A stretch of DNA of 62,356 nt, the filler included. It is 10 parts of 10 records of this genome, joined end to end, with 100 filler letters (N's around TTAATTAATTAA, not from the genome) between each part and the next. Parts side by side here need not be neighbours in the genome. Positions count along the whole stretch, not along the records: positions 11,596 to 22,927 come from SRR7504441_3375; 9 more parts are not named here. The stretch is one strand, 5' to 3'. The notes under the pieces are model-generated. The model was not told where the DNA came from, made no database searches, and saw only the letters and a list, made by a program, of their open reading frames with translations. Of this stretch, positions 5,760 to 53,285 are shown piece after piece; position 1 is the stretch's first letter, and every line of letters starts with the position of its first letter. Made by a program: the position numbers and the translations under genes.

Positions 5760-7793
5760 ATGTCCGTTGTTCAGTTGCCGCCAGTGCTTGACCGACGTGC
5801 GACACACATGCCGCTGCCCACCCCCCGCTCCCGACGCAGCTCGAGGGAGGCCATATCGCCGGTGCTCGCCGGCATGAAGCACCCTTCGCCCAGCGGCTCG
5901 GTCCTGCACAGCATGCAGCTCGACCCACCGCCGCTCGAAATCGGCCAACGAGTGCACGCGCCGGAGGTCCGACCTGCACATGAGTACGATCTCTGCTTGG
6001 ACCAGCTGTTCAGGCGCCCACCACACCCCCCGGGCCGACCCCTGAGCCGGGACCAGGCTGGCTGCGTCCGAACACGCCAACGAGGTCGCGTTGGAAGGGG
6101 CTAGGTTCAGCCTAACCTACGCCGAGCTGGAGCTGCACACTGACCAGCTGGCCGCGTTCCTACGGACACACATGGGCGCCCGGCCCGAGGCTGTGTGCGG
6201 CATATTCATGGAGCGATGCGAAGAGTGCTTGCCGGCGCCGGTTGCAGCTGAATTCGAGTGCCAGGTATGTGATCGCTCTGCTCGCCATTCTGAAGACTGG
6301 TGCGGCCTATTGCCCGATAGAACTGGCGTACCCGGCGACGTTGCTCGCGTCGGTGTTCGATGAGGTGCAGCCGTGCGTGACGATCACGAAGAGGGAGTGG
6401 GCTAACAAAATCCCTCAAGGGCTCGATCAATTCATGCTGGACGATGGCTGGATTGACGATGTCGGAGGTCAGCCGCGAGGTCCGCACCAGCTAACGGCTG
6501 GTTTAGGCGTCGATTTGAGTCTTCTCGAGCAAGAACGACCTAACAGTGACTCGCTGTGCTACATTGTGTACTCGGGGGGCTCCACTGGTGCTCTATGATT
6601 CGGTTGGGCGGCATTGAATGTGAGGGTAGGCAAGCCCAAGGGCATTCAAGGGACCATCAGAAGCTGCGTGGCGTCGTATCTCTGGCGGTACGAGCTTTCC
6701 GGATACCAACGAGGAGCTCGTGTTGCGTGCAATGTCTTTTTTGTTTGGGAGGTGTGTAGCACCCGGTATGGCGCTGCTGAGTCCTGTGATGGCAGATCTT
6801 GCGGCCACTGCTTCGTGGAGGATCCGTCATCTGCGTGCCCGATGACATTATCTTTAACGCCGCGGAGCTTCTGGAGTACATGAAGAGATTCCGAGTTACG
6901 GAGATTTTGTTCACACCGTCTCTTGCAGGCTAACAGCACCTTGATAAGGAAGCGACTGATCGAGTGGTGCAGAGACCTTGCTTGCTACAACGGAGAACAT
7001 CTCGCTGCAGGTCCCATCGCTGCAGGTCGTTTGGCTCAACGGCGAGGTGGTTGGGATATTCTGCTGTCCTGGCCAATGCTTGGCTTGTTGCAGGTGGTCA
7101 CTTCGAAATTGCTTGAAACATGTGAGCACAAGATGCCCCGTGTGAAGCTCTTCAGCACATATTCAATCTCTGAATGTGGCGAGGTGCCCCCTTGTGCATC
7201 TGCGCCTGCTCACTGTCTAAAGGTATCTGGTGTGGCGCTGCGTCACGACCCTTCCCGGCAATTCGGGACTGTTGGTAAGGCCGCTTCATTTGTGACGTAT
7301 TTGATTATGGATACTGAAAGCCACACCCCAGTGCAAGAGCAGTACCAACCTGGAGAGCTCTGGGTCTCTGGGAGAGGCGTTGGCCGTGGTTACTTATACA
7401 ACCCGCAGAAGACCGCTGAGCGGTTTGTGGAGAGAGATGGTGTATCTTACTTCCGCACTGGCGACCTCTGCAGGGAGGTGGAAGGTACTGACGGGGAGCT
7501 CGAAATTCTAGGTCGCTGCGACTTCATGGTCAAGGTACGTGGGTACTCTGTGGTGCTCGAAGCAGTGGAGACTGCCATTCTCAAGCGCATTGCGAGCTCT
7601 GCATGCTGTGTTGTTGCAATAGGGGCAGAAGGGGAGGATAAGAGACTCGCTGTAAGTTTCAGATCCTCAAAAGGCTTGTTGTGAGAGGGTTACAGGCGTA
7701 CATTGTGCCGTGCAAACAGCAAGCTGACGTCAAAGGCCGGCTTGCAGAGTGGTCTATCGATGAGAATCTCGCTAAATGTCAGATCTTTCTGGC
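5760..7793 (+). CDS. NRPS-type amino-acid adenylation domain protein, 3'-truncated by the contig end, many short introns
   Basis: Motifs LTYAEL (A1), ILKTGAAYCPIE (A2), YIVYSGGSTG|KPKG (A3), YSISE (A5), GELWVSGRGVGRGY (A6), YFRTGDL (A7) and GRCDFMVKVRGY (A8). Confidence 0.88.
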
Positions 7794-7893
7794 NNNNNNN
7801 NNNNNNNNNNNNNNNNNNNNNNNNNNNNNNNNNNNNNTTAATTAATTAANNNNNNNNNNNNNNNNNNNNNNNNNNNNNNNNNNNNNNNNNNNN
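7794..7893. other. Artificial contig linker (N44-TTAATTAATTAA-N44). Identical linkers at 11496-11595, 22928-23027, 26978-27077, 39001-39100, 43706-43805, 47515-47614, 50792-50891 and 59190-59289
   Basis: 100-nt N spacer with a six-frame stop palindrome, repeated nine times. Confidence 0.99.
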
Positions 7894-11495: not shown

Positions 11496-11880
11496 NNNNN
11501 NNNNNNNNNNNNNNNNNNNNNNNNNNNNNNNNNNNNNNNTTAATTAATTAANNNNNNNNNNNNNNNNNNNNNNNNNNNNNNNNNNNNNNNNNNNNTCCGT
11601 TGGCTATGTGGCAATCCGTGTATTCTTATTGGGAAGGTCAATGCAGATCATGAATCACGATCACGAGTGACCCGCCGCCGATCCACCGCCACGGCCGCCA
11701 CCACGTGACCACGCCCCTTGCCCATGGACGCAGACAAACCGTCATTACTCGAGTGCTCGACCATGTAACATTACAGCCATGCACGGCATCCGAAAAGAGG
11801 CTCCATTACGAGTATATACGTATACGTACGAGCATGACGTTGTCCAGATTTAACAGTACTAGTCAAGAATAGATCAAAAG

Positions 11881-12564
11881 CTATTGAGCGCTCCACAACA
11901 ACCGGTCAAATGCCCTCATCCGCACCCACTCGGGCCCGTATCGCAACTCGTCCCCCAGCCGCCCGAGCCCCGCCTCGGCAAGCTCCGGGCGCGCGCCTTC
12001 GTACCCCTCCCGCCACACCCGGCAGTACTCGCCATACGCCACCCCGGCCGCCAGACCCAGCGCCAGCCGCACTTTCGAGTCGAAGATCGGTACCGGCAGT
12101 CCGAGCATGTTCATGATCTTGCTCGCGGCCGATGGGTTCCGCCGGCCCAGCTCGGTGTGCATCACCTCGGTCAGACGCTCCACCAGCGCCAGCGCGGCCC
12201 CGGTGCATGGCTCGGCCTGAACCAGACCATCGATCTCCCCCAGATTCGCGCCGATGAACAGGGCAACCGGCCTGAGCTTGGCCTCGGCGGTGCCAGCCGA
12301 GAGGCCTGGAAAGCACCGGCTAACCCCGTAGGCACAGATGAACTGGTACAGCCCTGCGGCGCACCCGGCAGGGCCCTGGGTTGCGGACTGCCGGAGCCGC
12401 AGTGCGAGGCTCCGGTCCATGGCGATGAAGTGATCTTGGTAGCTGAGCATCGCTGCCCGGACTGCCTCGGGGCTCGCCGTTCGCGCCACCCGCCGCCGCT
12501 TGGGCTTGCGCGCTGTGCCCGTGGCCCCGGCGGGCGCTCGCTTGCCTGGTGGTGTGGAAGGCAT
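11881..12564 (-). CDS. Intronless bacterial-like alpha-helical (OGG/HhH DNA-glycosylase-fold) protein with an N-terminal NLS-like segment
   Basis: Pattern SAASKIMNMLGLPVPIFDSKVRLAL...YGEY...W...MRAFDRLLW; N-terminal RKPKRRR. Confidence 0.55.
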   Translation of the reverse strand: MPSTPPGKRAPAGATGTARKPKRRRVARTASPEAVRAAMLSYQDHFIAMDRSLALRLRQSATQGPAGCAAGLYQFICAYGVSRCFPGLSAGTAEAKLRPVALFIGANLGEIDGLVQAEPCTGAALALVERLTEVMHTELGRRNPSAASKIMNMLGLPVPIFDSKVRLALGLAAGVAYGEYCRVWREGYEGARPELAEAGLGRLGDELRYGPEWVRMRAFDRLLWSAQ

Positions 12565-12785
12565 GCGCCTGGAGCGGTCACCTGGACGTCAGCCGTTGTG
12601 CCGTTGTGAGCCGGGAGCGCGGCTGCAAGCTATGCCGCCTATGCGGGCCGCGCTGGCGATGGGGGCGTGGCCGGTCTGCTGTTCTGGACGCCCTGGCCCG
12701 CTGGTTGGTGTCTCTCGACACCCCAGTCCTCATAGCGCGTGGGCCGCAGCCTAGGGACCGTAATGTTTCAGTGTGCGATGCCGCC

Positions 12786-15650
12786 ATGCCGCCACGGGCC
12801 GATGAGGCCGAGGTGAAGAACTCGACCTCGAAATAGACGTCCAGCCCAGGGGCCGTCGGCACGCTCGGGTTGTCGATCAGCCGGAACTCCTTGGTCTGCG
12901 CGGCGGCTCGCGAGCGGCTGGGCGCAGGGCTGCACCTTGGGATGGCTGATCCGGATCCGGTGGGGAACCGAGTCCTGGTTTGTGACCGCTGGAACTGAGC
13001 GCCAGCCGGAGCGGGTGGTAGGTGGAATTCAATGGGAGCAAATTGGGCGAGTTCCAGGTACTGGCGCAACTCGAATTGGAACACCAGGAGGACAGAGCGC
13101 TCGAAATATCCGGTACTGTGGTCGAGCAGACGGTAGATGGCTGCGAGGCGGGGCTGATTCTGGCTGGCAGTGCGGGTAAGAAATCGAAACCCTGAACTGG
13201 CAATGAGCTACAAGATTGCCAAGGTGGCCAACTTCCGAATCGATCCCAAAGAAGGCACACTAGAACCTCTTGGTTCCAGGACGTTTGCAGTGACATACTA
13301 TCCTCAGCAGCTTGGCTCTTGTCACAATCGGTTAAATTTCATATTTGAGGGTGGAGCGCTGAAAGTGCCTCTGAAGGTCCAAGGGCACTGCATCCCAGAG
13401 ACCCATGCAGCCGGAACCACTCGGCGGGTGGTTGACCCCAAGCGCGTGGTGGCTGGCATTGACAAGACTGACGTAGATTTCAAACGCGAGCTCGACATTG
13501 TGCCGTCTGATTCAATTCCACTCAAGAACAAGAAGTTCAACTACCCAAACCCAGCACATCTGCAGACTTTATTCCTCCCAAGATTGAAATGCAGCCCAGT
13601 GAGCTGGATCTTGGCTGTCTCGCTGTTGGCGCAAGACACGAGTTCACATTTAATATTAAAAACACTGGCAAAGCTAACACCATCTTCCATCTGCAAGCCT
13701 CGTCTTCATTGTTGGATTTGAAGACAACGAAAGGCCTGATTCGGCCTGGTGCAAAGGCTGAAATCAATGGAACAGTGAAGCTGCTCGACACCAGTGTCAT
13801 AGACGAACAGGTCACAATCTTGCTCAGAGGAAGCAAGCCTGTCGTACTCAAAGTTACCGCGGAAGGTGCCCTTCCAAAAGTTGCTTTCGAGGAGGCTGAG
13901 TTTGATCTTGGCGATGTCACTGTTGGAGACTCTCATTATCTGCCCAAGACCACCATCGAATTCACAGGCCGGCTTGGCGAGCCGATTGTCAAGTCAATCG
14001 AGCTATCCAACTCATCAGCCTCACCAATACGCTACTCAGCTCGGTTGGACGGTTCTTCAGATTTCAGGCTCTTGCATGACGAAGTTCAGATCGAACCCAA
14101 GAGCAAGTTCCCCTGCACAATTGAGTTTGTGGGTAAGTTTTCACAAGAAGTCCAAGCTGAACTCTTCCTGATTCCGACGGCGTTTCTGCACCACCAAAGC
14201 CTGCAGAGAATGTCACGCTCCAGTGTAAGAAGGGCACTACTGCTAACAAGGAGATCACTATGCCCGTATTGAATCCTCAGAGGGAGGCAGCTTTAGCCTA
14301 CTTAAGCCAGCTCCAACTGAGCTCGATCAGATTCAATGCGAGATTGGTAAGCAGAGCTCTGTCAAATTTACCCAAGGCCACCTTGCCATACTCAAGTGCC
14401 GTGTAGGAGACAACGAAGTTCGTGCCCACTGATCCATAAGGCTCTAGCAAACCACTCCGCAGTCGTCCGCTCACGGCTCTTCTGCTGCGTCTCTGGTTGC
14501 AGATGTTTCACGGCTTTTTCTGCTTCCTTGGCGTCGAGCTGACATTGCTTGGTCAACAAGGAGAAGATGCAGTCAGTTTTGTATGGGTTTGCAATCGAAA
14601 TCATCTGAGTCACCGGCTCGTATGTGCATGACTCAATCGAGTAGTGCTGGCTCGGTTTGATCTCTGAGATTGATGATTTCAAATTGAAAACCAACGGCGA
14701 TCCAACTGCTCCACCGTCACGTTCGAACAAGCACTGTGAATTCACCGGCGGTTTCATCCATGAGCTGCAATTCACATTGAAAGAGACCTGGTGAGAATGG
14801 CAAGAAGGTAAGTTCAACGTCGACGCTGCTTGCAGCCTTGATAGGAATCTCAACCTGCTGGATGTGGAAAAATTCAGATATTGCTTCGTCTGGTAAGAAT
14901 TCTAGAGGCTCTTCCTTTTTCGAGGCCTTTCTCTTGCCTTTCTTCTTCTCGTCTGCCGATGGCTGGGGCTGAGAAGAGATTCGTAGGTTTAAACCTAATC
15001 GGAATCTGGATTGTTTGATGCTCAAACAGCTGCAATTGCTTGGTACCAGTTGACGAGCCCCCCATTAGTCTAAACGACTCACTTGTGCTATCCACCGCCT
15101 CCAATGAGACTGTTACATTTACTTTATGCTCAAATGGGTTGCGCAGGACCACAGGGTCGGAGACCTCCCGTCCCAGAGGTGCATAGAACATTGTCGATGC
15201 CATCTGCGTCGGAGGTTGTCCAACGCCACAGAGCGCAAATTCCCAGTCTGCCACCTTGGGATGCCGCAGCACTAAATTGGACTTCTGTTGCTGGTCCACT
15301 GTGGATGCAGTGTAAACTACTTCTAAGTCAAGTCGAGCATACGGTCCCATCACCAGTGGGCTGTCTTCGACAAGCACAAAGTTAGTGGGATTTGAATTGG
15401 TGCTGCGCAGCGTGATACTTTCACCAATTGGGTTTTCGATGGTAGGCTCGTCATCCTCACGGATGATATGCAATGGACGTACGAGGTTCGAGGCACACTG
15501 CCTCAATACCACGTTCCTGAGGGATTTGTCAAAGTAGCCACACATCTCTCGGACGAAGTGGAAGGGGAACTAACTAGGATCCATACTAGGCATCCGAAAA
15601 ATCACTTAAAAGATCAAGCAAAGCGGCCTCTCAAGCGAGGTGGCCGATGA
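12786..15650 (+). other. CFAP47: Scrambled/rearranged CFAP47-like locus: about 13 coding blocks on both strands, out of order, with internal parts missing
   Basis: CFAP47-like peptides: RIRISHPK|TKEFRL..APGLDV (-), ISGTVVEQT, KVANFRIDPKEG..PQQLG, ILLRGSKPV, YLPKTTIEF, STNSNPTNF (-), FLPFSPG (-), YTALEYGK (-) and LVILTDDMQWTYEVRG. Confidence 0.85.
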
Positions 15651-15883
15651 GCGTTTGCCAAAAAAAATAATCCACTTCGAGACCAACTTAGTAGCACTAA
15701 TAAACTCATTCTAAGATTCCCAATTTGGCAATTTATCACGACGTGGCGACTTCGGGATCGGACCATATAGAACAACGTCCACGCGTCTGCACTGATACTG
15801 TGTTATTACTGTGTTAATTAAAATTATCACCTATCACCTATATAATTAGAGAATTATCACCTATCACGGATCACGTGCTGACT

Positions 15884-18548
15884 CTACGCCGACTCTGCCA
15901 AAGTCAGAACAACGTCGATGTCGTACTTGCTTATGACTCCTGTCAGTGCAACCCGCGCAGATGTGCAAGTTTTTGCAACCTCCTTTTTGACCTCATCTGA
16001 TTGAGCATGTTGTAAAAGTTTAGCCTCAGCCTCATCGATGCTCGTATTAATTGTTGCCACACACATTGGGAACCAACGAAGCATTTTGCCCAGATCCGAG
16101 ACACACACTGCCACCATCTTGTTGAGGTTGTCATTTATCTTGGCAATCGCCAGCTGGAGTTTTGCATTCACCGCCGGCCCTTTCTCTTTCTTTTTGGGGG
16201 CATTCAAGAAAGCTATGGCTAGTGCAGACAGACCAGAGCTGACTGTGGCAGAGACCGCGCCAAATGCATTGGCAGACTTCATTAGCAGCAGCAGAATGCC
16301 CACCAGTATGGTGATTGCAGCAAGCAGCGACACCAAAGCGCCAACAATTGTCCACGTTGAGTATCCATTGTCGGACAGTGATTTACCGAGTGCATGTTCG
16401 AATGCAGATCTGACCAGAAGCACACTCTTCTGGATCTTTGTAGTCTTGAACCGCTTGAACTCCGCAATAGCGATCGCCCCATCACCGTTCACATCAAATT
16501 CTGCCCACTCATCGTCATCAACTGGTCCCATCTTCTTCTCGAACTCATCACGCTGCAGCAGTGCTCCATCAGCGCTAGCATCGCCCACCTTCGAGAACTC
16601 TGGGAGCATCTGAGTGTGCAAGGCGTCTCCCATTTTTTCGGTGGCACCAAGCAATCTTAAGCCTACTAGCTGTGACATGAGGTTGTCGTGTATCGTGTCC
16701 ATCAGCACCTGAGAACACAGCGGTCATGGCTTGTTAGGACACGAGGGCACCCGGTGATGGGAGACTTGCTGTTTGACGTTAGCCACGACGCTGCTGACCC
16801 TCATAAAGTTGGTGTACACAGCATATATGGTCGCGGTGATTGCCGTGAAGCTGAACATGTTGGTGAAGAAGTGCAGAACTAGACCCATCGCAGCGGACAG
16901 CAAGAAGCAAGCAGCGATTACCATGGTTAGCCAGGCCTGCCAACCAGTCAGCAGTGGCGACCGGTAGCGAAGTCACATGGAGAAGGAGGATGTCGCTGCA
17001 TACTCGAAACTTGATGAAGATAAGTACAAATAGCCGGTTGCGAGTGATCAGATGTAATCCAGGGATCAGCATGCCATCGAATTCAGTTCCAACATAGTGT
17101 ATCGCGAGGCAGCCCATTAGTAATATATATAATTTGTAGTTGAGGAGGACGGAAAAGTGGAAGAGCGAGTACAGCGCGTCTGATGCGAATAGCCCAAAGC
17201 TCATTCCATTCGTGCCAAACAGAAATAGCCCATTGATGAACTGAATATGCAAAAGTTGAAGAGCAGCCATCGTTGTCACAGTGAGCACGAACACGTGGAT
17301 CAGAACATTTTGTGTGCGAGAGAGCAGTTGGTCTGACATGAGTTGTGTGTCGGAGATGCTCGAGCCAGCAGTGCTCGAAGAAATCATGTGCAATATGCCC
17401 TGCTCCTCCTTGATCCGGCTCATCAGCTCATTATCGATCTCCGCTTTGAGCTGTGCAATGTCGCTGTGCTCAGTCAGCCGGCCTGGCTGCTCAAACTTGC
17501 GGGCCATGAGCTCATCGTACCACTCGCTGTGTTTTGAATCGTGAAGGAACAGGCCTTGCAGCACGTAGTTGTTGAGGTGCTCTCTGTAGCCGCGCTCAAG
17601 CGCCATTTGCAGCATAAAGGTGAATACAGTGGCCAGCAGCAGCACTGTTATGGCCACAAGCACCAGCAAGGACCGGATCTTCCGCTCGAGGTAGCTCAGC
17701 GGCTTCTCGACTAGTGAGAATTCTCCGTGCATGTCCACCTTCAACTTCCAACACCGCGATCGTCCAGCATTCGTGTACATAAAGAACCCATCTTTGAGCA
17801 CCCCGGTCTTCCGAGACTCCAGATCAAACTGCGAGCCGATCAGCTGGCCGAGGCAGGCGGTCATGTCTCCGCCCTGGCCTGGCTTCTGGGAGCACTCTGG
17901 AGAGCCAGCTTCAAGCTCCGACTCAAACGGTGCGCTTACCCAGACCGGGTCCAGAATCGAGCCCGAGATGGCATGCAGCAGCGCGGTGGGAAGCGTGGCG
18001 TACAGTACGCCGTGCGACCAAATCCACTGGCCTTGCTCTCCCCCAAACCAGCGCGTGTCCTTTGAGAAGACCAGGAAAGCGAGGTCTGGCAGTACTGGCG
18101 GCGACTGGCCCTCCTTATCCGCCGCAGCCGCCGGCGCGAAGGCGGTTTTGAAGCTGGTTACTCGATTGAGGTGCCGGGAGGCTCCGAGGTGGTCGAACTC
18201 CCGTCCCGAGTCTGCCCGGCCGAACAGGGCGTAACGGTGCAGCCCGCCCAGCACCGCCATCCCGAGCGCCAGCACCAACGCCGCCTGGAACAGGGCACAT
18301 ACCCGCCGCAGAAGCAGCGCCCGGCGCGCCCGGCTGGCCGACTCATCGGAGGGGGCGGGGCCAGCGCCGGCGAGCTCGGGGCCAGCGCCGGCGAGCTCGA
18401 TGGCGGTAGTCCCTGGTGGCGACTGGAGGGGCCGCTGCTCCTCGAACTGGAACGGCGACTCGGGTGGGCTGTCCATCGTGCCGTACGAGGGCTGCTCACT
18501 CCTCATGGCGGCCTGGACCGCCTTGCGCGCCGACTCGGTGCCTGCCAT
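15884..18548 (-). CDS. Multi-pass membrane protein with an EF-hand pair, about 2 introns
   Basis: ORFs 16779-18713 and 15884-16708 join through short introns. Many hydrophobic helices and the EF-hand loop DVNGDGAIAIAEF. Likely start MAGTES at 18548. Confidence 0.65.
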
Positions 18549-18625
18549 GGTCGCCTGCAGTTGCCAGCATAACGGCTTGTTCGGTGTCGCCTGTCGGAGG
18601 GCGGCGAACGGTTGCTGGGGCTGGG

Positions 18626-21264
18626 ATGAAGGCGGTGGTGGTGGGAGACCGCCAGACTGGTGGGTCTGCCCGCTCGGCGCCGCTGACCGGTCCGCAGGCA
18701 AGAGCACGCTCATCCGCAGGCTCGCCGGGGCTGAGGGCTCGAAAACCGAGTGCGGTGCGCGCCTGCGACTGGCTTCCCGCCGAACGGGCGGCAGGCCGTG
18801 CCGAGGTCACGCCAATGTCGCTCGGGGATGCTGGCGCGGCCAGCTCTGTGCGTGGCCTGGCCTCGCCGCCCTGCGAGCGACGGTAGGTGCACCTGTGGGA
18901 GTTCGCAGTCGACTCACCGCCTGAGCTGTACGCCGATGCCGAGCTAGCGCTGCTAGTGTACGACGTGACCAGCATGGGCTCGTTCGAACTGGCCACCACC
19001 ACAGCCATCGCGCGCCTCGGCGGGTGGCAGCTGCGGCCTCGCCGCTGGGGAGCCCGGGGGTACAGGCCTAAGTCTGTGCTGCTGGTGGGGCTGAAGAGCG
19101 ACCAGGCCGCCAACCGGGCAGTGACAATCGCGCAAGCGCACACGTGGGCGGTGTCGAACCGGTGCGGCCCTGCTCGACGGACCGGTCTGAGAGGGTGCAG
19201 CGTGCGGCTGGTGGAGGTGTCGGCGCACTCTGGGCAAAACCTCGATCAACTGCACCGTCTCGTGGCACTGAGCCACGCCGCCAGCGCGAGGGACACTGCG
19301 CACAAGCAGCCTGCAGTGCAGCCGAGCGCTAACAAGATCCAGCTCCCGATCTTCATGCAATCGCTCGGCGGTAACCAGTCCACCTCGGGTGTCCCCACGT
19401 CACAGCCGGCGCCGAGCCTCGCGACAGGTCAGCACGAGCAGGAGTGGTCTGCCGTTGAAGCCACGGCTGCCTCGTCTTCATTTGCGTGAGTGCTATTGCT
19501 AGTGCAAGCCCACCGAGCTTGGCCGCTGCAGGATGGTGGACGACAAGACGACCATGGAGTACCTGGACGCGCTGTGCGGGATCCCGAAGGCCCAAGCCTC
19601 GATCCGAGTCGCAGCCCAGCGATCTCAGCGGTCACCTACCCAGTCCTGGGCCACGTCAAGTTGGGTCGGAGAATCGGATCAGCTCTGGTCGCAACTGGCT
19701 CCCCCGTCCCAGCAGCTCAGCCTCAGTCCGAGGTTAGTGTTGTTGCGGTCACTCAGCAAGCAGGGGAACAGGCCGCAGACAACCCGCAACTACGAGCATG
19801 CGGCGAGCTTCGGCCTGGAGATAGCGAGTGCCATGCCTGAGACGCCCCCGCCGGAGTTCAAGGTGCTGCCGCTGGCCGCTGAGTCTGGCTCACAGCCGGT
19901 GTGCCAGGCCGAAGTATCAGCAAGCTCCTCATCAAAGCAGTCGCTGCAGAGGCACTGGGGCCCGGCCACTGCGCGACCAGGCCAGCACTCCGGTGGTTGA
20001 CTCTCTATGGCTGCAGCCTGACCAAGCTGCAGGCAAGAGCAGGAAGGTCGAGTCGCACGTGGCAGCCAGCTCACCGGGGCTGCCGCCCACAGTCAACGGC
20101 GACCTGCAGGTTCGCTATGCACGATCAGCTGCACCTGATGTGTGTGTCAGAGGCTGATTGGCCTCTCTGGCATGCCAGTGGTCACCCAGTCTAAACGGGT
20201 GATTCTGCATTTGGAGCTGGACATAGGGGACGGGCGAGTGGAAAGGATCGATGTAAGAGAGGGCGACAAGCCTGCTGTGAGCTCGCCGGCCTGTGTGGGC
20301 TTGACTGGCATCCGATAGGTGCTGGCGGAGGCATTCGTGCAGCTGCACGCACTAGCTCCGGCCATCATCCCTCGGCTGGCATCGTTCATAGATCAGCGCA
20401 CTGCAGCGGTCGCTTGAATCGCTGCAACTAGCTGTTGACCGCGTGGAGGTCAGGTCCAACAGGAGAGCAGTGCCAGTGCTAGCAGCAGCAAACCCCGGCC
20501 GCACACGAGCCGGGCGCCATCGGCACCCCGTACACACAAGTCGCCGCGGCGATCCGTCCAGCCGTTCCGGCTGGAGACGAGTCAGCGAGCAGAGGGCAGC
20601 AGAAGGCAGCCGCTCTGTCATTGTTGCTGGCCAACGAGTGTTTTCAGGTCTGCTATAGCACTCCTGAAATTACATATCCAGATCAGCCACGGTAGATCTG
20701 GCACAATTATTGTCCGCAAGGTGCTTTGGCCAGTGTTTCCAAGCTCCTAAGCTGTTTGGCTGTCCCAGGGCGACGACCCAAAGCAGCTCGCGCAGGCGTT
20801 TGTAGACACATTCAAATTGAACCATTCAATGGTCAGAACGATCTACGAGAAGATCAACGAGCAACTCAAGCTGCTCCAGCCGGTGTCCGCAGCACCACCC
20901 GCTAGGCCCTCATCTGTGCTGCAGAAAGTCCAGCTGCCAAAGCTCGATTTATCGCAGCTCGAGCCCAAACAGCCTGCGTCCAGCTCAGTGAACCTGTCTC
21001 CCATCACACCAAAGCCTCTGCGCGAGATCCTGTTCAATCTTGATATCGACCTCGGGGCTCAAGGCGCAGGCCGGCTGGTGGTGAGGCGAGGGGACAATCC
21101 GGGTGCGTGCTCACACCGACCGGTCTTGAACGGTTGCGGTGTGTGCAGAGGCTTTGGCGCAGGCGTTTGTACAGCAGCACAACCTGCACCCGGACGTGAA
21201 ATCTAAACTCACCCAGCTCATAACTGAGCACACTGACACCATGGCCGCATCAACACCGCGCTAG
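18626..21264 (+). CDS. Divergent Ras/Rab-like GTPase domain + long low-complexity linker + two C-terminal repeated domains, multi-intron
   Basis: MKAVVVGDRQT|GKST P-loop split by an intron, then VHLWE, LLVYDVTS, LLVGLKSD and VEVSA. Two repeats of the form IIVRK|GDDPKQLAQAFV and LVVRRGDNP|EALAQAFV. Confidence 0.7.
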
Positions 21265-21638
21265 ACATTAGCTAGATACGTATTCGTTTGTACTACATAT
21301 ATGTCTTAAACTGACCAAAGTCACCAAACTATACTGATGTACGAAATCCGGTACATGTACAATAACTGTAACAAACACGATGATCCCGCAGCGTACATGT
21401 ACGCCATCACCAGCTGGCGCTCGGTCGGAGTCCACTTGTGTTTGCCACCTACCAGCCGGCCATCTGCTTGCCCGGCAGTAGCCCGGCAGGCGGCTCACCA
21501 TTGAATAGTGACCGCTCCATTAGAGCCGCCCCGGGCCCTCGGTCAGTGAAGAGGTCTCGCGCAGTCACATAGGTCTAATTTTGGTCGCACTCGTCTCCGG
21601 GGCTGCAAGGAGGGCGCTGCTGCACAGTGCACTGCGTG

Positions 21639-22120
21639 ATGGCGCCGAAGAAGGACAAGGGGGAGGAGGAGGAGGAGGAAGTGTGGCGGCCGTTTGCGAA
21701 CGACCCCGACATGATGCTCAGAGAGCCGGTGCAGGTCGCCTCGACCCCCCGGGGCCCCCGGCGACCGGCGGGGCCAGATGGGGTTCAAGACCATCCAAGC
21801 CGTGGCCAGCGCACACGCCACCGCCTGGCAGAACCACGCCAACGCCCAGGGCGAGATCGACTTCGACGCCAAGGGCCAGCAGATCGTCTCCGACATCCGC
21901 AAGGCCCCCCGCCCCCCCGGGGTCGGCGCGAGCTGTCGACAGGCGCTGGAGGAACAGTTTGAACCGACTTGGCACGTGGTGGCCGGCCGGAACTACGGGA
22001 CCGCCGTGACTTACCAGTCCAATCAGTTTCTCTACTTTTCGAAGCACCAGGTTGGCCGCCAGCGCTGTCCGGCCCGACCGGGCGGGCCAGATTCACTTTT
22101 TGGTTATGAAGACGGTGTGA
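21639..22120 (+). CDS. Dynein light chain LC8-family protein, 3 introns (one GC-AG, 21904-21942)
   Basis: SDIRK|ALEEQFEPTWHVVAGRNYGTAVTY...FLYF...|IHFLVMKTV*. Confidence 0.85.
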
Positions 22121-22414
22121 GGGGGGCGGGCGGCGGCGGCGCAGTCTTGGGCTGGTGGCGGCGCGGCGGATCGAGCTCTCGCGACAACCAGTCGCCGGGC
22201 TCCGGGGAAGTGGGTCGATGATTAGAGCTTCGGCTAGGGCAAAGAGAGCGTTGTTAGTTCGAAACGCTCTTTTGCGAGCGTTCAATAATGGGCACATCTA
22301 GATGGCCTGGACAAACACTGGTATTTAAATAATGTACACAACTTATCAGCCCGTCGTAGCAAGCAGAATGCAGTCTACCCAAAGCCTTTGTCAGGCTACT
22401 GTACGTACTTGACT

Positions 22415-22893
22415 TCATCGGGCAGGCAGGTCGTCGAAGTATGCGTGCTCGAGCCCCTGCTGGGCCGTGACCCTGCGAGCGGGCTCGTACTTGATCATCT
22501 GAGTCAGCAGGTCCAGTCCGACCGGATCCAGACCTAACGGAGCCAAGCTCTGGCCCTGGCAACTACTGAGTGCCTCGCCACGCTGCGCACAAAGCTGGTC
22601 ACATGCGGAAGGCTCTGCCGCACCTTGAACGAAGGCGTCTCTATGATGGAGGGCCAGCTGTCGCGGGTCGGGGTGCCGAGTATCTGGGTCGGCCGCTCAG
22701 TCAGCCGGCTCTGGCTTCCAAGGCACCCGGACAATCTTGTGCAGCTGGTCCTTGTCTGAGCTACCTGGGAACAGCGGCTGGCCGGTGGTCATCTCGGCGA
22801 AGATGCAGCCGCAGCTCCAGAGGTCGAGCGGGGTCGAGTATCTAGTCGACTCCATCAGCACCTCCGGCGCCCGGTACCACAAGGTGACCACCT
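22415..22893 (-). CDS. Cyclin-dependent kinase, C-terminal half (5'-truncated by the contig end)
   Basis: [34 protein letters not shown] and [13 protein letters not shown]; stop at 22415-22417. Confidence 0.92.
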
Positions 22894-23403
22894 GGCACGG
22901 CTCCCCCCCCCCCCCCCCCCCCCCCCCNNNNNNNNNNNNNNNNNNNNNNNNNNNNNNNNNNNNNNNNNNNNTTAATTAATTAANNNNNNNNNNNNNNNNN
23001 NNNNNNNNNNNNNNNNNNNNNNNNNNNACTGTTCTGCACAGTGTTCCTATAGCCACATCAATTTCTGCCAAATGCAGTCTGTGGGCTGCATCCAGCTCAC
23101 CCATTAATCAGCAGAACTGTGGTTTGGGGGTCTAAAGCCCATGATCACAAGGTGTGAGCAAGAGCACAGGGCCAATGCCACGATGCCAACGCCACCCGCT
23201 CTTTGTTCATAACGAAATCCCGTGCCGCGGCCTCTCGCCTGATGGGCAGTGCAGTGCCGATGCTAGCCGTGCTGTGCCTGATGGTCGCGCAATGCTCTCC
23301 ACATTGTGTACGACGACCGTTGTGAAGGCCAAGGGCACGCTGAATCAGTGCGCTGATGGCCTTGAATCCTATGGCGGCTTGCAGCGGCTGAGCCTCCGGC
23401 CCA

Positions 23404-26881: not shown

Positions 26882-27172
26882 CAACTGGTTAAATGTAAAC
26901 TACAGTGATTCTCGAGACTAAATTAGTGACTGGAATTAAATACCTTCTTAAAATTACATACAAGTGCGCATGTGTTANNNNNNNNNNNNNNNNNNNNNNN
27001 NNNNNNNNNNNNNNNNNNNNNTTAATTAATTAANNNNNNNNNNNNNNNNNNNNNNNNNNNNNNNNNNNNNNNNNNNNGCACCGACAGCGCTGCCGGCCGT
27101 GGGGACAAGGCATCCCAACGAGCTGGCAGTGTCGGTTGGCGTGCCGGTTTAGAAGTGGCGACTGTGCCTCGG

Positions 27173-36382: not shown

Positions 36383-36480
36383 CTCGTCACACGGCACTTC
36401 CTCAGGCAGAAGGTGAGAGCTGCGGCGTGGCAGCCTCGACAGAGTGCCGTTACCGTTAAACACGGCGACCGGAGGAGGCT

Positions 36481-37591
36481 ATGCGTAGCGTGCTGCGAGC
36501 GTGCGCGCTGCGGCCCGGTCAGCTGGCCCGTCGGCTGTGCTCGGCCAGCGCGGCCGAGTTCGGGGAGCACGGGTTCTGCATCGTGCGGCAGGCGGTGCCG
36601 CCGGGGTTGCTTTCCGAGCTGCAGGCGCACCTGGTCTGGTTGATGGACAAGTACCCTCAGGTACCCCCGAGCAAGCTCCAGCACCCGCTCAGCTTCACCG
36701 ACCCCTTCTGGGTGCGCGCAGTGGCCGAGCCCCGGCTGTTGGACATCGCGGCTCAGCTGCTCGGCACCGACAGCCTGGCGCTGTTTGTATCGCACTACCT
36801 GTGCAAGCTGCCCGGGGCCGGTGAGCCTGTTCTCTGGCACCAGGACGGCAGCTACTTCGGGCTCGAGCCCACCGAGCAGTCGGCCGCACTGCCGGCGATC
36901 GGCCCGATCAATATGTGGCTGGCGATCGACCCTTCGACGGCCCAGAACGGTTGCTTGCGCGTGATTCCAGGTGAGCCGGTGCCGGCATCGCCTGGGGCAG
37001 GATCCGCGCGGGGCAGGCTCGCACCGGAGCGGCGTGCTGCCTGTCACCGGGCGGACTGGCGCGGACGATGTGCTCGGCACGTCGGTGGCCGGGCCGGTGG
37101 ACGAATCGAATGCAGTCGACCTCGAGCTGAGCCCGGGCGACTTGTCGGTACACCACCCGGCGCTGCTGCACAGCTCGCGACCCAACCTGTCGGAGCGACG
37201 GCGGTGCGGGCTGAATATCCGTTACATCCCGACCAGCACCCGAGTGGTTCAGGAGCTGGGGGACGCACTGTTCCTGATGCGCGGAAGCGCGGTCGAGGGA
37301 GTCAACACGTACCGGGCCTGGCCGAGATACGTGCAGGGGGAGCACATGAGGTTCGAGGGGTGCGATGAGTGGAACCAGGCTAAGCTAGCCCGGCAAGGCG
37401 CCGGGATCCCAGAACTCGGAGAGAAGGAAGAAGACAAGAGGCGGCGGCTGGTGCGCTGCACTTACTGGCGGGCTCACGGATGGCTGTGCTAGGTGGATTA
37501 TTTTGTGCAGCTGTCCGGTCGGGCCGCGAGTGCCAAGGCGATGGCCAAGAGCATTCATCACGACATCGATCGGGGACAAAAGACTTATTAA
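36481..37591 (+). CDS. Phytanoyl-CoA dioxygenase (PhyH) family 2OG-Fe(II) oxygenase, 2 introns
   Basis: WHQDGSYF, WLAIDPSTAQNGCLRVIPG|SH, LLHSSRPN and RRCGLNIRY. Confidence 0.92.
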
Positions 37592-37822: not shown

Positions 37823-38919
37823 TTACTCGTTGTCGCGATTGCTAGTATACTCATTCAAAAAGGGGTGGGCTTCGATCTGAGGTAGCGTGGCTCTTTCTTC
37901 TGGTCGCTTGACCAATATTGCATCGAGCAAGCTCGAAAGCGATGGATCGACATCGGCCGGCACCGGGCGCGGATCATCGTTCGCAATGTTCTCGAACAGT
38001 TCGAAGTAATTTTGGTTGTCAAACGGAAGCCAGCCGAGCCCAAGACTGTAAATGCACACACCTGCACATAGTAAGATGAGCCCGTAGCGAGGAGATTGGA
38101 CCGACCGTATTTCCACACGTCGCTCGCGAAGCAACTAAAGCCAGTAGCGCTGCTTTGCACCATCTCCGGTGAGAAGAATTGGTAAGTCCCCTTGGAGGCC
38201 ATCGCCCATCCTCGCTCGTTGTCTGTATCAAAAAGCGTGGCCTCGCCAAAGTCGGCTATCTTAAAGACACCACCGGACCGGAGCACGTTCTCTGGCTTCA
38301 GGTCACGGTGGCATATCAAGTGACCGTGAAGATATCTCAGTCCCGCCGCCACCTCCCTTGCGCACTGCCTGAGCTCCGGGAGCTGCATCGGCCGGCCATC
38401 CGGCTGCAAGTACTCGCGCCGGTCTGCTTCCCAGTAGCCGGCTTGCCCGTCGCACAGTTCGAGAACCATAAACATCCGGTCGCCTGCCCACACGCTCAGC
38501 CCAGTCCGGCCAGCCCGCCCACAGCTGTCGTCGTCGATCAGCTCCACGAACCGGACCAGGTGGGGATGGAGCAGCCGTCGCAATATGCCCACGGCGCCAT
38601 GGACTCGCTCTCGACTGGTCCGCAGCCGCTTCGAGCCGCCCCGCCGGACATGAGTGCGCTCCATTGATCCACGCGGTAGCACCTTGATAGCGAATTCGGC
38701 GCCGTCGTCGGCTCGGACCGCCCGGTGAACAGTGGCGAAGGTGCCATGCCCAATCTCGGCTGCCAGTGTGTACTGGTTGATCGTGGAGCTGTCGCCGGTG
38801 GCCAGTTCGGTGCTCAGCCAGCGCTGCTGAACCTGCTGCCAGGCTGGGCTGGTGGGGCTCGGCTCCCCCTCCTGCTCCTCGCTGCCGCCGCCGTACTGTC
38901 GCGACTCGCCTGATCCCAT
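37823..38919 (-). CDS. CAMKK-like Ser/Thr protein kinase, short introns
   Basis: INQYTL..IGHGTFATV, AIKVL, HPHLV..ELIDD, HRDLKPENVL, KIADFG and GTYQFFSPE. Confidence 0.9.
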
Positions 38920-39128
38920 CAAGATCTGGCGCCTAACGGCAACTCAGGCTCGGTTGGGATGCCTTGCGTACACGGCCGGCAGCGCTACCAGTGCAAGGAG
39001 NNNNNNNNNNNNNNNNNNNNNNNNNNNNNNNNNNNNNNNNNNNNTTAATTAATTAANNNNNNNNNNNNNNNNNNNNNNNNNNNNNNNNNNNNNNNNNNNN
39101 ATTGAATTCCGTTCTCGTGTTCAGGGGC

Positions 39129-43276: not shown

Positions 43277-43805
43277 ATGGGGTGCCTGCGAGAGGGATGG
43301 TTCTGTGGATAGCTCGGCTTTGACGCTAGTGAGTGTCGGTGTTTGGGGGTGAATCATTGCCCGATTTAATAGTAAGTTAATCTATGAAACCCGCATAAAC
43401 TTGTTCTGCTTTCTTACATAGAGTAGCCTTTATCGATAAACTGTAATTTTAAAAGGGATTTTAATTGAAGATAAATTGAAGACCGGTCACGAGTAAGCTT
43501 ACATGGCGTGCCTTCGATGGAAACCATATTGCAGACAGATCAAAATACAGAATACTTGTACCGTCGGGCTACGTGGTCCAGCGTGCTATTATCCGCTGCA
43601 CGTGCGTGCTCTTCGCATAGATCCGGTCCCAGAAGCCACGCACACGCCGTGTCCCACCCCGCGACCTCCCCGCAGGCTGGGCAGCGCCATCTCGTCCCCC
43701 CCCCCNNNNNNNNNNNNNNNNNNNNNNNNNNNNNNNNNNNNNNNNNNNNTTAATTAATTAANNNNNNNNNNNNNNNNNNNNNNNNNNNNNNNNNNNNNNN
43801 NNNNN

Positions 43806-47392: not shown

Positions 47393-47614
47393 CGAACTTG
47401 GCGAGCCCACACCCAACGGTGATTTGCTGACCTGATCACCCCTCATGATGATGATCATGAGTGGGGCCGGCGAGCTGTAGACTCCGTAGACTAGTGGACC
47501 GACCTACTGACCTANNNNNNNNNNNNNNNNNNNNNNNNNNNNNNNNNNNNNNNNNNNNTTAATTAATTAANNNNNNNNNNNNNNNNNNNNNNNNNNNNNN
47601 NNNNNNNNNNNNNN

Positions 47615-50791: not shown

Positions 50792-51032
50792 NNNNNNNNN
50801 NNNNNNNNNNNNNNNNNNNNNNNNNNNNNNNNNNNTTAATTAATTAANNNNNNNNNNNNNNNNNNNNNNNNNNNNNNNNNNNNNNNNNNNNGTCAATGAG
50901 AATAAAACCCCCTCAAATGTAGAATTTAGCTTGGGGTCAGTCCGTTATGATCATTATATGATCATGATACACTGATGATTTTGGTTGACAGTCAGCCGTC
51001 CGTCGAGCTGATATCTATTTAATATACAGCAG

Positions 51033-53285
51033 CTAGATGCTGAATTCGAGGCTGAATCGGAACTCGAGGTTTGTATCGGCCGGGTCGAAAGGATACCACT
51101 GCGGATAGTTCGTGCCCCACAGGTTGTTCCAGAGGTTCCAACTGGCGCCTTGACTCAAGTCCGGAAGCCCAAACGGCTCCTGCACAGAGGTGCCGGCGCT
51201 GGTCGGGAACGCGGTCGGTTCGCCGTAGCAGAGCAGACCGGCGTCCAGTGAGGCGACCCGTAAACTGCCACCCGCCGCGCCATGCCAGTCGACCGCCTCA
51301 GCGCCATGCAAGTGAGCCGACCCGTGGCTGACAAGGGCAGTGGCGTTGCTACTCAGCCCGAGGGTCTGGTGGCTCCAGCTGCCAGTGGCGTTCGGATTGA
51401 AAGTGACGAATGCGGCCTCAGGCAGCCTGGTGGCTGTCTTCTGGAGAGCCGTGACGACAATGTCCATTTGCGAGCCGCTGGCGTTAACACTCACCATCAC
51501 CGTCTGTGGCGCACCGTAGTCCTCGTACGCCGCCGGTGTCATTGTGAGGTTGAGCATAAAGAGGGTCGTACCGCCAGAGGCGGCCACATGCACAGAGGCT
51601 AGGGTGGGAGTCCAGACCGCGCTTGTGGCGCTATTGCGGTCATGTACGGCTCCAGGCATCCCCGGCATCCCCGGCTTGCAAAAGTCCTTGTCTCCGCAGT
51701 CCGGCACACTGGAGCCATTCTTGTTCTCTCTGTACTGGGCGACATAGTTTGAAACGTCAACAGCGCTGTACGAGCGGTAGGAGAACCTGGCTAGCTGAGC
51801 ACCCCCCAGCACCAGGGCGCCGTCTTCTGCCAAATCGAGAGGCACGGAGAACCCAGGTAGGCTGAACGTTCTTTGCTTTGTCAGGTTCATTCCAGCTGTC
51901 GACGGCACAGTCGGAGGCGCTAGCTCGGTTTTGATCTCCGCAGCAAGAGGGTGCGATCCGAGTGCGTCGAGTGCCGTGTCAATTCCCCACAGCCGCTGCT
52001 CCTGCCAGCTGCTCTCCATGTCCTGAAAGTTGCTCTTGCTCCGCCTGGCAGTTTGCAGCTCGCTATTAGTCCAGGCCCGCATGTAGCTGTCCTTGTCTTT
52101 GCCTAGCCAAGTCTTCACGTCTTTCCCCCAGGCTGGCCCCAACAGTCAGCCGGCTTATCAATCAGGCAACGCACTGTGCTCGCCGTTCTTCATGAGTAAA
52201 CGGGTGAAGTTCGCGATCTCGGCCGCTTGTGGGTCACAACGGCCGGACTCGACACATGCTGTCCGGTGCCTCATCATGGCCCTCATCGCGCGTGTTTTGA
52301 AGGGATCCGATTGCATGCCGTGTATCCAGGTATCCCCGATCTCCTGAGTCACTACCGGCAGCTCGCCCGACGCATTCGCCCGCACCAGCGCCGGCAAGAA
52401 GTCGTCAAATCGAGCGGTACGGATCGTGGCGTTCGGGAACTCCTTTCGCATCTTGGCCCACTGAGCTTCCACCCCAGAGACACTCAAAGGACCCGAGTTG
52501 TCGCCATTCCAGTCCGGACAGAGCGCCTCGCCGGCCGCGTAGTGGCAGTCGGCCCGTCCATCCCCGCCATACCCGCCCCGGTGGAACAGCACGAATACTT
52601 CTTGCCCTGCTACTCTCCACCGAAACACCGGCGCAGTCGCTTCTGGGGCGAGCGGCACTGGCGCCTCGTTGATCCCGTTCGCCCCAATCGAGACGATCCG
52701 GATTCCGTTGGCCGCAAACACCGGGACCACCGCCCGGCTGATCCCGGGGACGTCCCGCTGGCTGTAAGCCACCGAGGGCAGGCCGCCGTTGGCTAGGCTC
52801 ACGTTTCGTGAGAAGGCCAGCCCGGCGGCGAGGGTGGTGGCGTCGAAGGTCTCAGGCTCGCCCGAGTGCGGGAAGCCGGCCAGCCAGAGGTCGCCCCGCT
52901 GGATCGCCGCCCGGACGCTGGCCTTGGCCGGCTCGGACGGGCAGTGCAGCCCAGGCCAGGCCGGGCAATCCATGTAGATCGAGATGAGATACGGGAAGGT
53001 CATGAAGCTCAGCCGGGCCTCGCCCCCGGCCGCAGTCAGGTTGGCGGCGGTCTGGATGGCCGCCTGGTAGAAATGGTCGAAGTACCGGTTGAGGATCCCG
53101 GCGCACGAATCGGCGAACCCGACGTCCAGGTGGCAGCTCTGCACCACGTGCACCGTGTGGATCCCCGGAGGCGGGGCCGGCGGCGGCGGGCCGGTGTATG
53201 CCGGCTCCGGCCAGTCGTCGCACAAGGCACCGGCTGCAAGGGAGAGCACCACCACGAGCAGAGTGCGCATTTGAGGGAGGAGCAT
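51033..53285 (-). CDS. Secreted GH38-like / DUF5054 protein, 1 intron
   Basis: Signal peptide, HVVQSCHLDVGF, SQRDVPG, GDNSGP, EIGDTWIHGMQSDP, EH|TWG and WNLWNNLWGTNYPQWY. Confidence 0.85.

Follow-up and report, generated by a model that had tools for sequence, protein, structure and literature searches.

The window (the whole stretch of DNA analysed, 62,356 nucleotides with filler) has at positions 13170-15717 a patchwork built from ten pieces of one CFAP47/FAP47 gene, which follow each other as S1 S2 A D E G' B' C' F' H; a polyadenylated mRNA contig from public marine data carries the normal gene order, including 564 nt between F and G that are absent from the window. The inversion at 14369..15444 described in an earlier note is only one of about ten misjoins, and same-species seawater transcripts have the normal, intact order. 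Therefore, whichever origin holds, the locus is no switch but either an artefact or a dead copy in rearranged form. The reading favoured here, to which we give an even chance, is that the patchwork is a real, dead, rearranged allele.

CFAP47/FAP47 is a central-apparatus protein of motile flagella of about 2,900 aa. The window pieces share 52-79% identity with the orthologue P0003, which itself matched Chlamydomonas FAP47 (PDB 7n6g) with an E-value of 2e-234, CFAP47 (PDB 9ijj) with 1.5e-124, and HYDIN with only 1e-12. Judged by these sequence matches, the remnant is orthologous to CFAP47/FAP47. As in this C1 protein of the central apparatus (PDB 7n6g, 7sqc, 9ijj), Ig/ASH-type domains are recognisable in the window pieces, and the window ORFs match Pfam families of this type only. 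Unlike the complete protein, the remnant is shuffled and retains only ~27% of it, with ~73% of the coding sequence absent (~2,100 of ~2,900 codons, in five lost stretches). The Pfam CFAP47 (PF24529) and CH domains, present in P0003 and in P0006 (in the latter at residues 1463-1614 and 1678-1783), are not in the window but inside the lost part between piece S2, which ends at P0006 residue 1003, and piece A, which starts at residue 1786. The features of the locus are as follows.

12810..13169, minus strand: GC-rich fragment, unrelated to the gene, fused to the remnant at its 5′ edge; the left edge of the fragment (12809/12810) also conflicts with a public contig
13170..13570, plus strand: piece S1, P0006 residues ~403-523 (tblastn, E 1.8e-8); right edge approximate (13560-13604)
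13571..13931, plus strand: piece S2, P0006 residues 896-1003; query 4-122 matches position ~890-1005 of ~2,900-aa proteins
13932..14176, plus strand: piece A, P0003 residues 655-735 (P0006 1786-1862), 79% identity, E 2.5e-33
14177..14303, plus strand: piece D, P0003 residues ~906-946; adjoins A since B and C are removed
14304..14372, plus strand: piece E, P0003 residues 1331-1353; terminates in TACC
14369-14372: TACC, left copy of the 4-nt inverted microhomology, with the partner GGTA at 15441-15444 (read in the sequence)
14373..14460, minus strand: piece G, inverted, P0003 residues 1697-1725
14461..14724, minus strand: piece B, inverted and transposed, P0003 residues 736-821, E 1.9e-24; its normal place is after A
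14725..14976, minus strand: piece C, inverted and transposed, P0003 residues ~822-905; precedes B on the minus strand (swapped order)
14977..15440, minus strand: piece F, inverted, P0003 residues 1354-1508, 67% identity, E 1e-58
15441..15650, plus strand: piece H, C-terminal end of the protein with the TGA stop, P0003 residues 1726-1788; starts with GGTA
15651..15717, plus strand: 3′ UTR to the poly(A) site of the mRNA, with AATAAA at 15700-15705 and no A-run in the window at that site

The pieces are 69-464 bp long and derive from a single gene, all within a span of about 9 kb. Those on the plus strand have kept their native order, and B and C were displaced into the inverted block with their order swapped. 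Upstream of S1 the gene lacks its initial ~402 residues; further gaps comprise about 372 residues from S1 to S2, where the frame changes, about 782 from S2 to A, the CFAP47 and CH domains among them, and about 383 from D to E. Frame changes occur also at A/D, D/E and B/C, so that the product of the patchwork would be unable to encode the protein. No piece is duplicated, as the P0003 ranges are free of overlap except for a low-complexity linker and one alignment end that runs too far. Each stretch is either retained or lost, which makes two copy-number states and points to shattering rather than to replicative copying. A search of 12600-16000 for repeats gave none longer than 30 nt and only chance-level short ones, none able to mediate the joins or to confuse an assembler.

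All ten joints lie within 2.3 kb, and the pieces abut directly with no spacer. The joints are mostly blunt, eight being same-strand and two inverted; the strand switches at 2/9 scorable joints (binomial P ~0.09 for two or fewer under 50:50). The breaks A/B, C/D, E/F and G/H were each used on both sides and no bases were lost; A/B and C/D share 0 nt, while E/F and G/H share 4 nt each. Restriction-site or Hi-C type ligation was considered and rejected, as the contexts of nine joints have no common motif. Retro-copying of an aberrant mRNA was discarded as well, as the window carries on as genomic DNA beyond the poly(A) site of the mRNA and has no A-tail there.

For comparison, assembled contigs from four public marine runs were used, the longest and most informative records being RNA; an unexpressed or degraded allele would escape such an RNA-dominated comparison. 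The contigs are 99-100% identical to the pieces (0-1 mismatch per contig), and because the pieces show no decay against the wild transcripts, the rearrangement, if real, would have to be very recent. At nine of the ten joints contigs depart from the path of the window, and none bridges any joint (0/10); coverage is lacking at the S1/S2 joint and in most of S1, S2 and B, which has no bearing either way. At the left edge, X5 record 8 equals 12810-12952 with 0 mismatches, followed by 24 unlike letters before 12810, and X5 record 9 matches 13170-13261, with its 170 upstream letters unlike the window. X4 record 3 follows the window up to 13931, the end of S2, and departs from it there. The X1 contig matches 14304-14372 (E), preceded by 159 unlike letters, is identical to 14977-15440 (F) with 0 mismatches, and has its match end at 15717, after which it carries a C and 22 A. 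X4 record 4 links 14725 on the minus strand to 14177 with 0 shared letters, and the re-joined C+D gave one HSP with 0 gaps. The window itself has A (14176) next to D (14177) and C (14725) next to B (14724), so that it shows both products of one exchange. Re-joined A+B also gave one HSP (168 aa, 1 gap). A scan of JGI metagenome contigs with piece F returned one distant locus only (L001, 35% identity) and no same-species DNA. The search for near-length protein homologues of the minus-strand ORF spanning the F'/H joint yielded 123 candidates, none of which scored, so that among them no independent protein has this non-canonical joint.

The claim of the earlier note that TACC at 14369-14372 and GGTA at 15441-15444 bound a block inverted relative to orthologous proteins was borne out. 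The plus frame runs ...QCEIGKQSSVKFT to 14372, and the minus strand runs IENPIGE... from 15443 downward. In tblastn, P0003 residues 1354-1508 correspond to the minus strand at 15440..14976, residues 1697-1739 to the minus strand at 14459..14307 and residues 1726-1788 to the plus strand at 15441-15629 (71% identity). The orthologues P0001 and P0002 gave the same inverted pattern as P0003. The note also read both ends as in frame once flipped, and in scripted re-joining un-inverted E+F gave one HSP of 177 aa and G+H one of 92 aa, each with 0 gaps. The 4-mer occurs as a single copy at each end of the inversion, and both ends are present. Inverted microhomology of at least 4 nt is found at 2.0% of inversion breakpoints placed randomly within the window; it is the homology, not the 4-mer, that carries the evidence for the inversion beyond chance. 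The description of the inversion as clean did not hold: within the inverted block G, B, C and F form a mosaic, 564 nt that the normal gene has are gone, and the inversion is only part of a set of ten non-canonical joints. Of the two readings offered for the short junction repeat, end joining fits best, and the ciliate pointer failed at the junctions open to a test, with 0 nt shared at A/B and C/D; eliminated spacers are lacking too, and the window is short of ~73% of the coding sequence. The suggested orientation switch was checked in independent libraries: both junctions are crossed by contigs from two runs of two studies (the X1 and X2 contigs link G to 15441/15445 on the opposite strand), in the uninverted form, and the inverted form occurs in 0 contigs of four runs. 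Because only the uninverted orientation is seen there, the outcome that the note itself named as refuting its claim, a reversible switch is unsupported; a private lesion or an artefact remains.

If the locus is a real allele, positions 13170-15717 would be the native 3′ end of a CFAP47/FAP47 gene whose body was cut into many small pieces and religated. A minimal history would need three two-break operations plus deletions. The B-C block may have been excised, leaving the A/D joint and a joint of the end of C to the start of B; the excised block, opened between B and C, could then have re-entered where the 564 nt had stood between F and G, and finally the F..G block may have flipped between the 4-nt inverted match TACC/GGTA. 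One catastrophic shatter-and-stitch event could give the layout equally well. In either case the joins look NHEJ-like: they are blunt or carry no more than 4 nt of microhomology, and the reciprocal breakpoints lost no bases. We infer that end joining made the joins and that the molecule was present in vivo, whether as an allele private to the sequenced cell, strain or population or as an additional dead copy. Clustered breaks, reused break sides, two copy states only, blunt or short-microhomology joints and lost fragments, the marks of chromothripsis-like cutting and rejoining, are all seen at the locus. A comparable system is biolistic damage in rice and maize, where fragments of less than 200 bp are restitched by NHEJ, with 25% of joints blunt and 50% with 1-4 nt of microhomology (bioRxiv 10.1101/379644). 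The likeness to this chromothripsis-like shattering and stitching comprises clustered breakpoints, small fragments religated in altered order and orientation, the loss of intervening pieces, two copy states only, and joints that are blunt or have 1-4 nt of microhomology. Unlike in the plants as described there, the scale here is tiny (~9 kb, one gene, pieces of 69-464 bp), order and orientation are less random, there is no foreign DNA or known trigger, and the in-vivo origin is our interpretation. Two features count against this reading: loss-free joining at all four reciprocal breakpoints is unusually neat for NHEJ, and order and orientation (2/9 switches, plus strand colinear) are less random than in classical chromothripsis.

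The main competitor, less probable than the real allele and yet a serious one, is that the patchwork was made in vitro, by whole-genome amplification of one or a few cells, as another library chimera or by an assembler threading chimeric reads, and that the real gene is canonical. In the window, a draft, contigs of 3-12 kb are glued by N44-TTAATTAATTAA-N44 spacers, and the locus contig terminates in a poly-C run; the library behind it may have been amplified. That 0/10 joints have independent contig support and 9/10 are contradicted across the four runs counts against a real allele and for an artefact; so do the identity of the pieces with wild mRNA and the incorporation of the unrelated fragment 12810-13169 with its contradicted left edge. 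Early-formed chimeras of multiple displacement amplification (MDA) can moreover attain high depth, and short-read single-cell assemblies are rich in misassemblies (bioRxiv 10.64898/2026.06.11.730069). The locus shares with phi29 chimeras in amplified single-cell DNA (PMC1855051) its local range (<10 kb), the combination of deletion and inversion, and a 4-nt complementary match at the inversion joint. However, 85% of the MDA chimeras in that source are inverted, inversions are favoured about 26-fold within 10 kb, and at least 2 bp of complementarity is found in about 91-94% of those less than 10 kb apart, whereas here only 2/10 joints are inverted, eight are direct, and the testable direct, reciprocal ones have 0 nt of homology. 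Neither the reciprocal reuse of the same two breakpoints nor the lack of duplicated pieces is predicted by replicative switching. Random in-vitro ligation should draw partners from anywhere, yet the pieces come from one gene. De Bruijn misassembly requires repeats of about k length, and only chance-level short ones are present. Further split genes were checked elsewhere in the window (AMP-binding, Pkinase, PhyH and DUF5054), and 4/4 proved colinear on one strand, so that the assembly is not generally scrambled. An unlikely in-vivo alternative is replicative template switching, a collapsed-fork repair of the MMBIR/FoSTeS type in which the patchwork was copied from nearby templates and the rest of the gene deleted. 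Clustered breakpoints, small pieces from within about 9 kb, both orientations and 0-4 nt of microhomology would suit it, but duplicated or triplicated segments are absent, and the use of A/B, C/D, E/F and G/H on both sides is what breakage and religation predict, not copying. With its reciprocal breakpoint reuse, mostly blunt and loss-free joints, lack of duplication and 8/10 same-strand joints, the locus is better explained by chromothripsis-like cutting and rejoining through NHEJ than by template switching or by MDA chimeras.

Two further readings, ciliate-style unscrambling and a reversible switch, have very little probability. In the former, the window would hold a germline-type scrambled gene that is unscrambled at the DNA level, guided by pointers, before expression. 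This would explain an mRNA in unscrambled order that is 100% identical to the scrambled pieces, and a 4-nt repeat lies, pointer-like, where E ends and F starts and again where G ends and H starts; the shortest known pointers are 2 bp (PMC9797194). As in the scrambled germline genes of the hypotrich ciliates Oxytricha and Tetmemena in that source, a colinear expressed sequence goes with permuted and inverted segments in the DNA, and a short repeat stands at two junctions. Pointers of at least 2 bp would be expected at every junction, but A/B and C/D share 0 nt, and for the other junctions the window lacks the partner pieces. Further differences from the hypotrichs, as portrayed there, are the lack of IESs or other eliminated spacers between pieces, the absence of most segments, including the 564 nt between F and G, from the 62-kb window, and the restriction to one gene, the other 4/4 genes checked being colinear. 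The frame change at B/C is another point against this reading. A GC content of about 0.6 and a standard stop codon at the orthologous position give composition and genetic code nothing ciliate-like, and a single 4-nt match has the 2% chance rate per breakpoint pair given above. We hold programmed rearrangement to be highly improbable; its variant of a scrambled, partly dispersed germline-type CFAP47 locus in a GC-rich non-ciliate marine eukaryote, with seawater mRNA from a DNA-level or RNA-guided unscrambled copy, merits equally little credence. Least credible of all is a recombinase that flips 14369-15444 and turns the gene on and off. Short inverted repeats do flank the block and flipping restores the frame at both ends, but the repeat has only 4 nt, and the flipped gene would still lack ~73% of its codons, with B and C misplaced and frames changed. 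The six stop-to-stop ORFs of at least 200 aa scanned from the locus contig had no match to a recombinase family, and one orientation only, not that of the window, is seen in the contigs of the four runs. The flipped form in RNA has the 564 nt in place of B and C, and thus is not a simple flip of the window DNA.

If real, the patchwork would be a base-pair-resolved natural case of gene-scale shattering and loss-free religation, in which a central-pair flagellar gene was killed in a marine protist with wild relatives in which the same gene is still expressed, and it would bear on the loss of motility genes and on end-joining behaviour in organisms of this kind. As an artefact, it would be an annotation warning for draft eukaryote assemblies, since the opposite-strand ORFs would pass as two convergent Ig-domain genes.

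The left flank was examined separately. A search of prokaryote genomes for relatives of the GC-rich ORF at 11884-12564, with regard to bacterial chimerism, gave 130 pattern matches and 0 relatives, and Pfam returned a weak DUF6308 match only (E 0.05). The fragment 12810..13169 had no Pfam match. In ESM Atlas, 12812-13198 on the minus strand was recognised poorly, with AraC-type matches that share only 131 features and are thus unreliable. An Oxa1-like ORF was placed by ESM Atlas in 'Eukaryota', at no finer taxon.

The rearranged gene at 13170-15717 is identified by homology as CFAP47/FAP47, whose product is a large protein built of Ig repeats in the central apparatus of motile flagella. A word-indexed search with a minus-strand piece as query gave P0001 (903 aa) and P0002 (716 aa), both long homologues. 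When the plus-strand ORF was used in an exhaustive search without profiles, 368 relatives were recovered; P0003 (1,790 aa) is the closest, and many proteins of ~2,900 aa come next. P0003 matched Chlamydomonas FAP47 (PDB 7n6g/7sqc, 2,939 aa) with an E value of 2e-234 and CFAP47 (PDB 9ijj) with 1.5e-124, but HYDIN with only 1e-12. The Pfam CFAP47 domain and the CH domain are present in both P0003 and the orthologue reference P0006. In the locus itself, Ig domains of the HYDIN/CFAP65/ASH/Cep192 type were detected in ORFs on the plus strand (13170-14272) and on the minus strand (15545-14717). Ten pieces were delimited against the orthologues; their left-to-right order in the window is S1 S2 A D E G' B' C' F' H, with primes marking inverted pieces.

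Pieces of the CFAP47/FAP47 remnant, with window coordinates, strand and matching orthologue residues
S1: 13170 to ~13570, plus strand, P0006 403-523
S2: ~13571-13931, plus strand, P0006 896-1003
A: 13932-14176, plus strand, P0003 655-735
B: 14724..14461, minus strand, P0003 736-821
C: 14976..14725, minus strand, ~P0003 822-905
D: 14177-14303, plus strand, ~P0003 906-946
E: 14304-14372, plus strand, P0003 1331-1353
F: 15440..14977, minus strand, P0003 1354-1508
G: 14460..14373, minus strand, P0003 1697-1725
H: 15441-15650, plus strand, P0003 1726-1788 plus stop

Five stretches are absent (P0006 1-402, 524-895 and 1004-1785, the last including the CFAP47 and CH domains; P0003 ~948-1330 and 1509-1696), amounting to ~2,100 of ~2,900 codons, and tblastn found no match to them elsewhere in the window at E <0.05. 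With frame changes at S1|S2, A|D, D|E and B|C, neither orientation of the inverted block allows the protein to be encoded here.

The earlier note had described a clean ~1.08-kb inversion at 14369..15444. Its 4-mers (TACC at 14369-14372, GGTA at 15441-15444) and translations are correct, and the block between them is truly inverted relative to the orthologues, because tblastn against the window placed flanking and block residues on opposite strands: P0003 1354-1508 matched the minus strand at 15440..14976 (67% identity, E 1e-58) and 1697-1739 the minus strand at 14459..14307, whereas the residues immediately N-terminal of 1354 ended at 14369 on the plus strand and 1726-1788 lay on the plus strand at 15441-15629. 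After re-joining by coordinates in a script, E+F and G+H each aligned to P0003 as a single HSP without gaps (177 and 92 aa). Inverted microhomology of at least 4 nt occurs at 2.0% of random inversion breakpoints in the window, and we take the support for the inversion to be the homology to the orthologues, not the 4-mer. Both breakpoints of the inversion, E|F and G|H, are used reciprocally, and each joint keeps a single 4-mer copy. The inversion is not clean, being only one joint pair among ten non-canonical joints.

A word index placed sequence of the locus in marine/seawater runs only; the best-matching run, of RNA, contained 36% of the words, and all runs stayed below half. Assembled contigs of four runs from four studies (X1 and X4, RNA; X2 and X5, RNA and DNA according to the tool's guesses) were aligned to 12500-16500 at ≥90% likeness. 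Ten records aligned, of which two from X5 (records 6 and 7, ~91% alike, high depth, 12687-12745) look like unrelated repeats. The X1 contig (1,644 nt) carries a poly(A) tail (C plus 22 A past 15717) and, reading inward from it, H with the 3' UTR (15717..15441, 1 mismatch), G (14460..14373, 0 mismatches), 564 letters absent from the window stretch, F (15440..14977, 0 mismatches), E (14372..14304, 0 mismatches) and 159 letters differing from the window; the 564 letters correspond to P0003 1509-1696, the 188 residues that separate F from G in the orthologue. A 568-nt X2 contig has the same G-H union (4 letters shared) and differs from the window beyond 14460. Among three X4 contigs, one of 151 nt runs from the end of C (14725) straight into the start of D (14177), the two sharing 0 letters, and a second departs from the window at 13931. 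Three more X5 contigs cover 13170-13261, 12810-12952 (exact, differing before 12810) and part of F; in the first, the 170 upstream letters are unlike the window, and the 30 printed letters before 13170 continue the coding frame when translated.

Contigs thus depart from the window path exactly at 9 of the 10 joints, S1|S2 having no coverage, and no record of the four runs bridges any of the ten. Assembled contigs reveal presence, not absence; in them the window's inverted orientation was not seen in any independent library, while X1 and X2 have the uninverted G-H union and X1 also E-F. The 0-1 differences per piece, together with the canonical contigs, indicate that wild members of the same species express a canonical, colinear gene. 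By the same sequences, the wild population is conspecific, but not clonal, with the sequenced source. Single-base differences from the window are 13226 G>A, 13867 T>C and 15659 C>T. AATAAA lies 12 nt upstream of the poly(A) site of the mRNA contig (15700-15717); the X2 contig stops following the window at 15698, and its 11 differing letters may mark an alternative 3' end.

In the window, the end of A joins the start of D and the end of C joins the start of B, using the identical two breakpoints (canonical C|D, 14725|14177) with 0 bases shared, lost or added. These joints are reciprocal products of a single exchange, in which the B-C block was deleted and its end joined to its start. Opened between B and C, this block occupies the place of the 564 nt that normally separate F from G; because the B|C joint shifts the frame, a few bases were lost there. 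Four further joints have, on their visible side, 0 bases in common with the canonical continuation of the environmental contigs. Eight of the ten joints are direct, the testable direct ones are blunt, no piece is duplicated, and a search around the locus found no repeat >30 nt able to guide recombination or mislead an assembler. In double-cut-and-join terms, the history would comprise three two-break operations and five deletions. Because breaks are clustered, both sides reused, fragments lost without duplication, and joints blunt or of ≤4 nt, the gene would have been physically broken and religated by NHEJ-type joining, chromothripsis-like at gene scale. A report on biolistic damage in plants describes restitched fragments <200 bp, with 25% blunt joints and 50% with 1-4 nt of microhomology (bioRxiv 10.1101/379644).

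Whether this lesion is real we regard as an even call; if so, the sequenced cell, strain or population may carry it as a private allele, or it may be a surplus dead copy of a gene that is also present intact. A restitched molecule arising in amplification or library making is a possible, somewhat unlikely source: the assembly is a draft, independent support for the joints is entirely absent, the pieces are perfectly identical to wild transcripts and the unrelated fragment 12810-13169 is included, but neighbouring genes are normal and the junctions are reciprocal, free of duplication and mostly direct, the testable direct ones being blunt. According to one preprint, early chimeras in single-cell MDA can attain high depth and short-read single-cell assemblies contain many misassemblies (10.64898/2026.06.11.730069). 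MDA chimeras do not fit the joints well: in one systematic study 85% were inverted, direct joints <10 kb apart were rare (11 vs 337 inverted), and ~91-94% of joints <10 kb began at ≥2 bp of complementarity (PMC1855051), in contrast to the joints here, which are mostly direct and, for the testable direct ones, blunt. Reciprocal reuse of breakpoints is not expected from in-vivo replicative template switching (MMBIR), which as a rule leaves duplications behind. The ciliate-type pointer unscrambling offered in the earlier note, which needs a repeat at every consecutive junction (shortest known 2 bp; PMC9797194), is very unlikely given two junctions without a repeat, missing spacers, the absence of most pieces from the window and normal neighbour genes. 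A reversible switch was ruled out, since the RNA form is no flip of the window's DNA: in place of B and C it has 564 letters of different sequence. DNA of the same species was not found in JGI metagenome contigs.

The window consists of ten contigs of 3-12 kb, the locus lying on that at 11596-22927, separated by nine 100-nt spacers (44 N, TTAATTAATTAA, 44 N), so adjacency across spacers is meaningless.

Spacers
7794-7893
11496-11595
22928-23027
26978-27077
39001-39100
43706-43805
47515-47614
50792-50891
59190-59289

Gene style is eukaryotic, with numerous long open frames (largest 997 aa) and an Oxa1-like ORF clustering with eukaryotic groups only; GC is ~0.6 overall against 0.45-0.54 across the locus. 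All four other multi-ORF split genes checked in the window are colinear on one strand, which argues that scrambling is not a trait of the whole assembly.

Other split genes, with colinear profile segments
6046-7681, plus strand, AMP-binding gene, segments 4-64, 52-175, 298-384
37826-38943, minus strand, protein kinase (Pkinase) gene, segments 1-185, 183-263
36460-37489, plus strand, PhyH gene, segments 3-148, 148-211
51033-53285, minus strand, DUF5054 gene, segments 3-47, 79-285

Each comprises 2-3 overlapping or adjacent ORFs in differing frames on one strand, and either short introns or frameshift errors may explain the splits. The locus contig ends in >20 C (22900-22927), as many short-read contigs do. 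A 227-aa ORF at 11881-12564 (minus strand, 70% GC) has a weak best Pfam match (DUF6308, E 0.05) and no close relative in the prokaryote genome collection. The GC-rich fragment 12810-13169, for which no protein family was found, may be a further restitched piece from another gene; X5 record 8 matches 12810-12952 exactly and diverges at 12809|12810. An AT-rich spacer leading from CFAP47 to the next gene contains an exact 16-nt direct repeat, AATTATCACCTATCAC, in two copies 30 nt apart (15822-15867), with more ATCACCTATCAC-like copies. Two ORFs follow downstream at 15884-18713 (minus strand), one of 274 aa of EF-hand/transmembrane type and one of 644 aa without a Pfam family; the latter runs from 45-54% GC DNA into coding sequence of 70% GC, which shows that GC shifts strongly inside single genes here.
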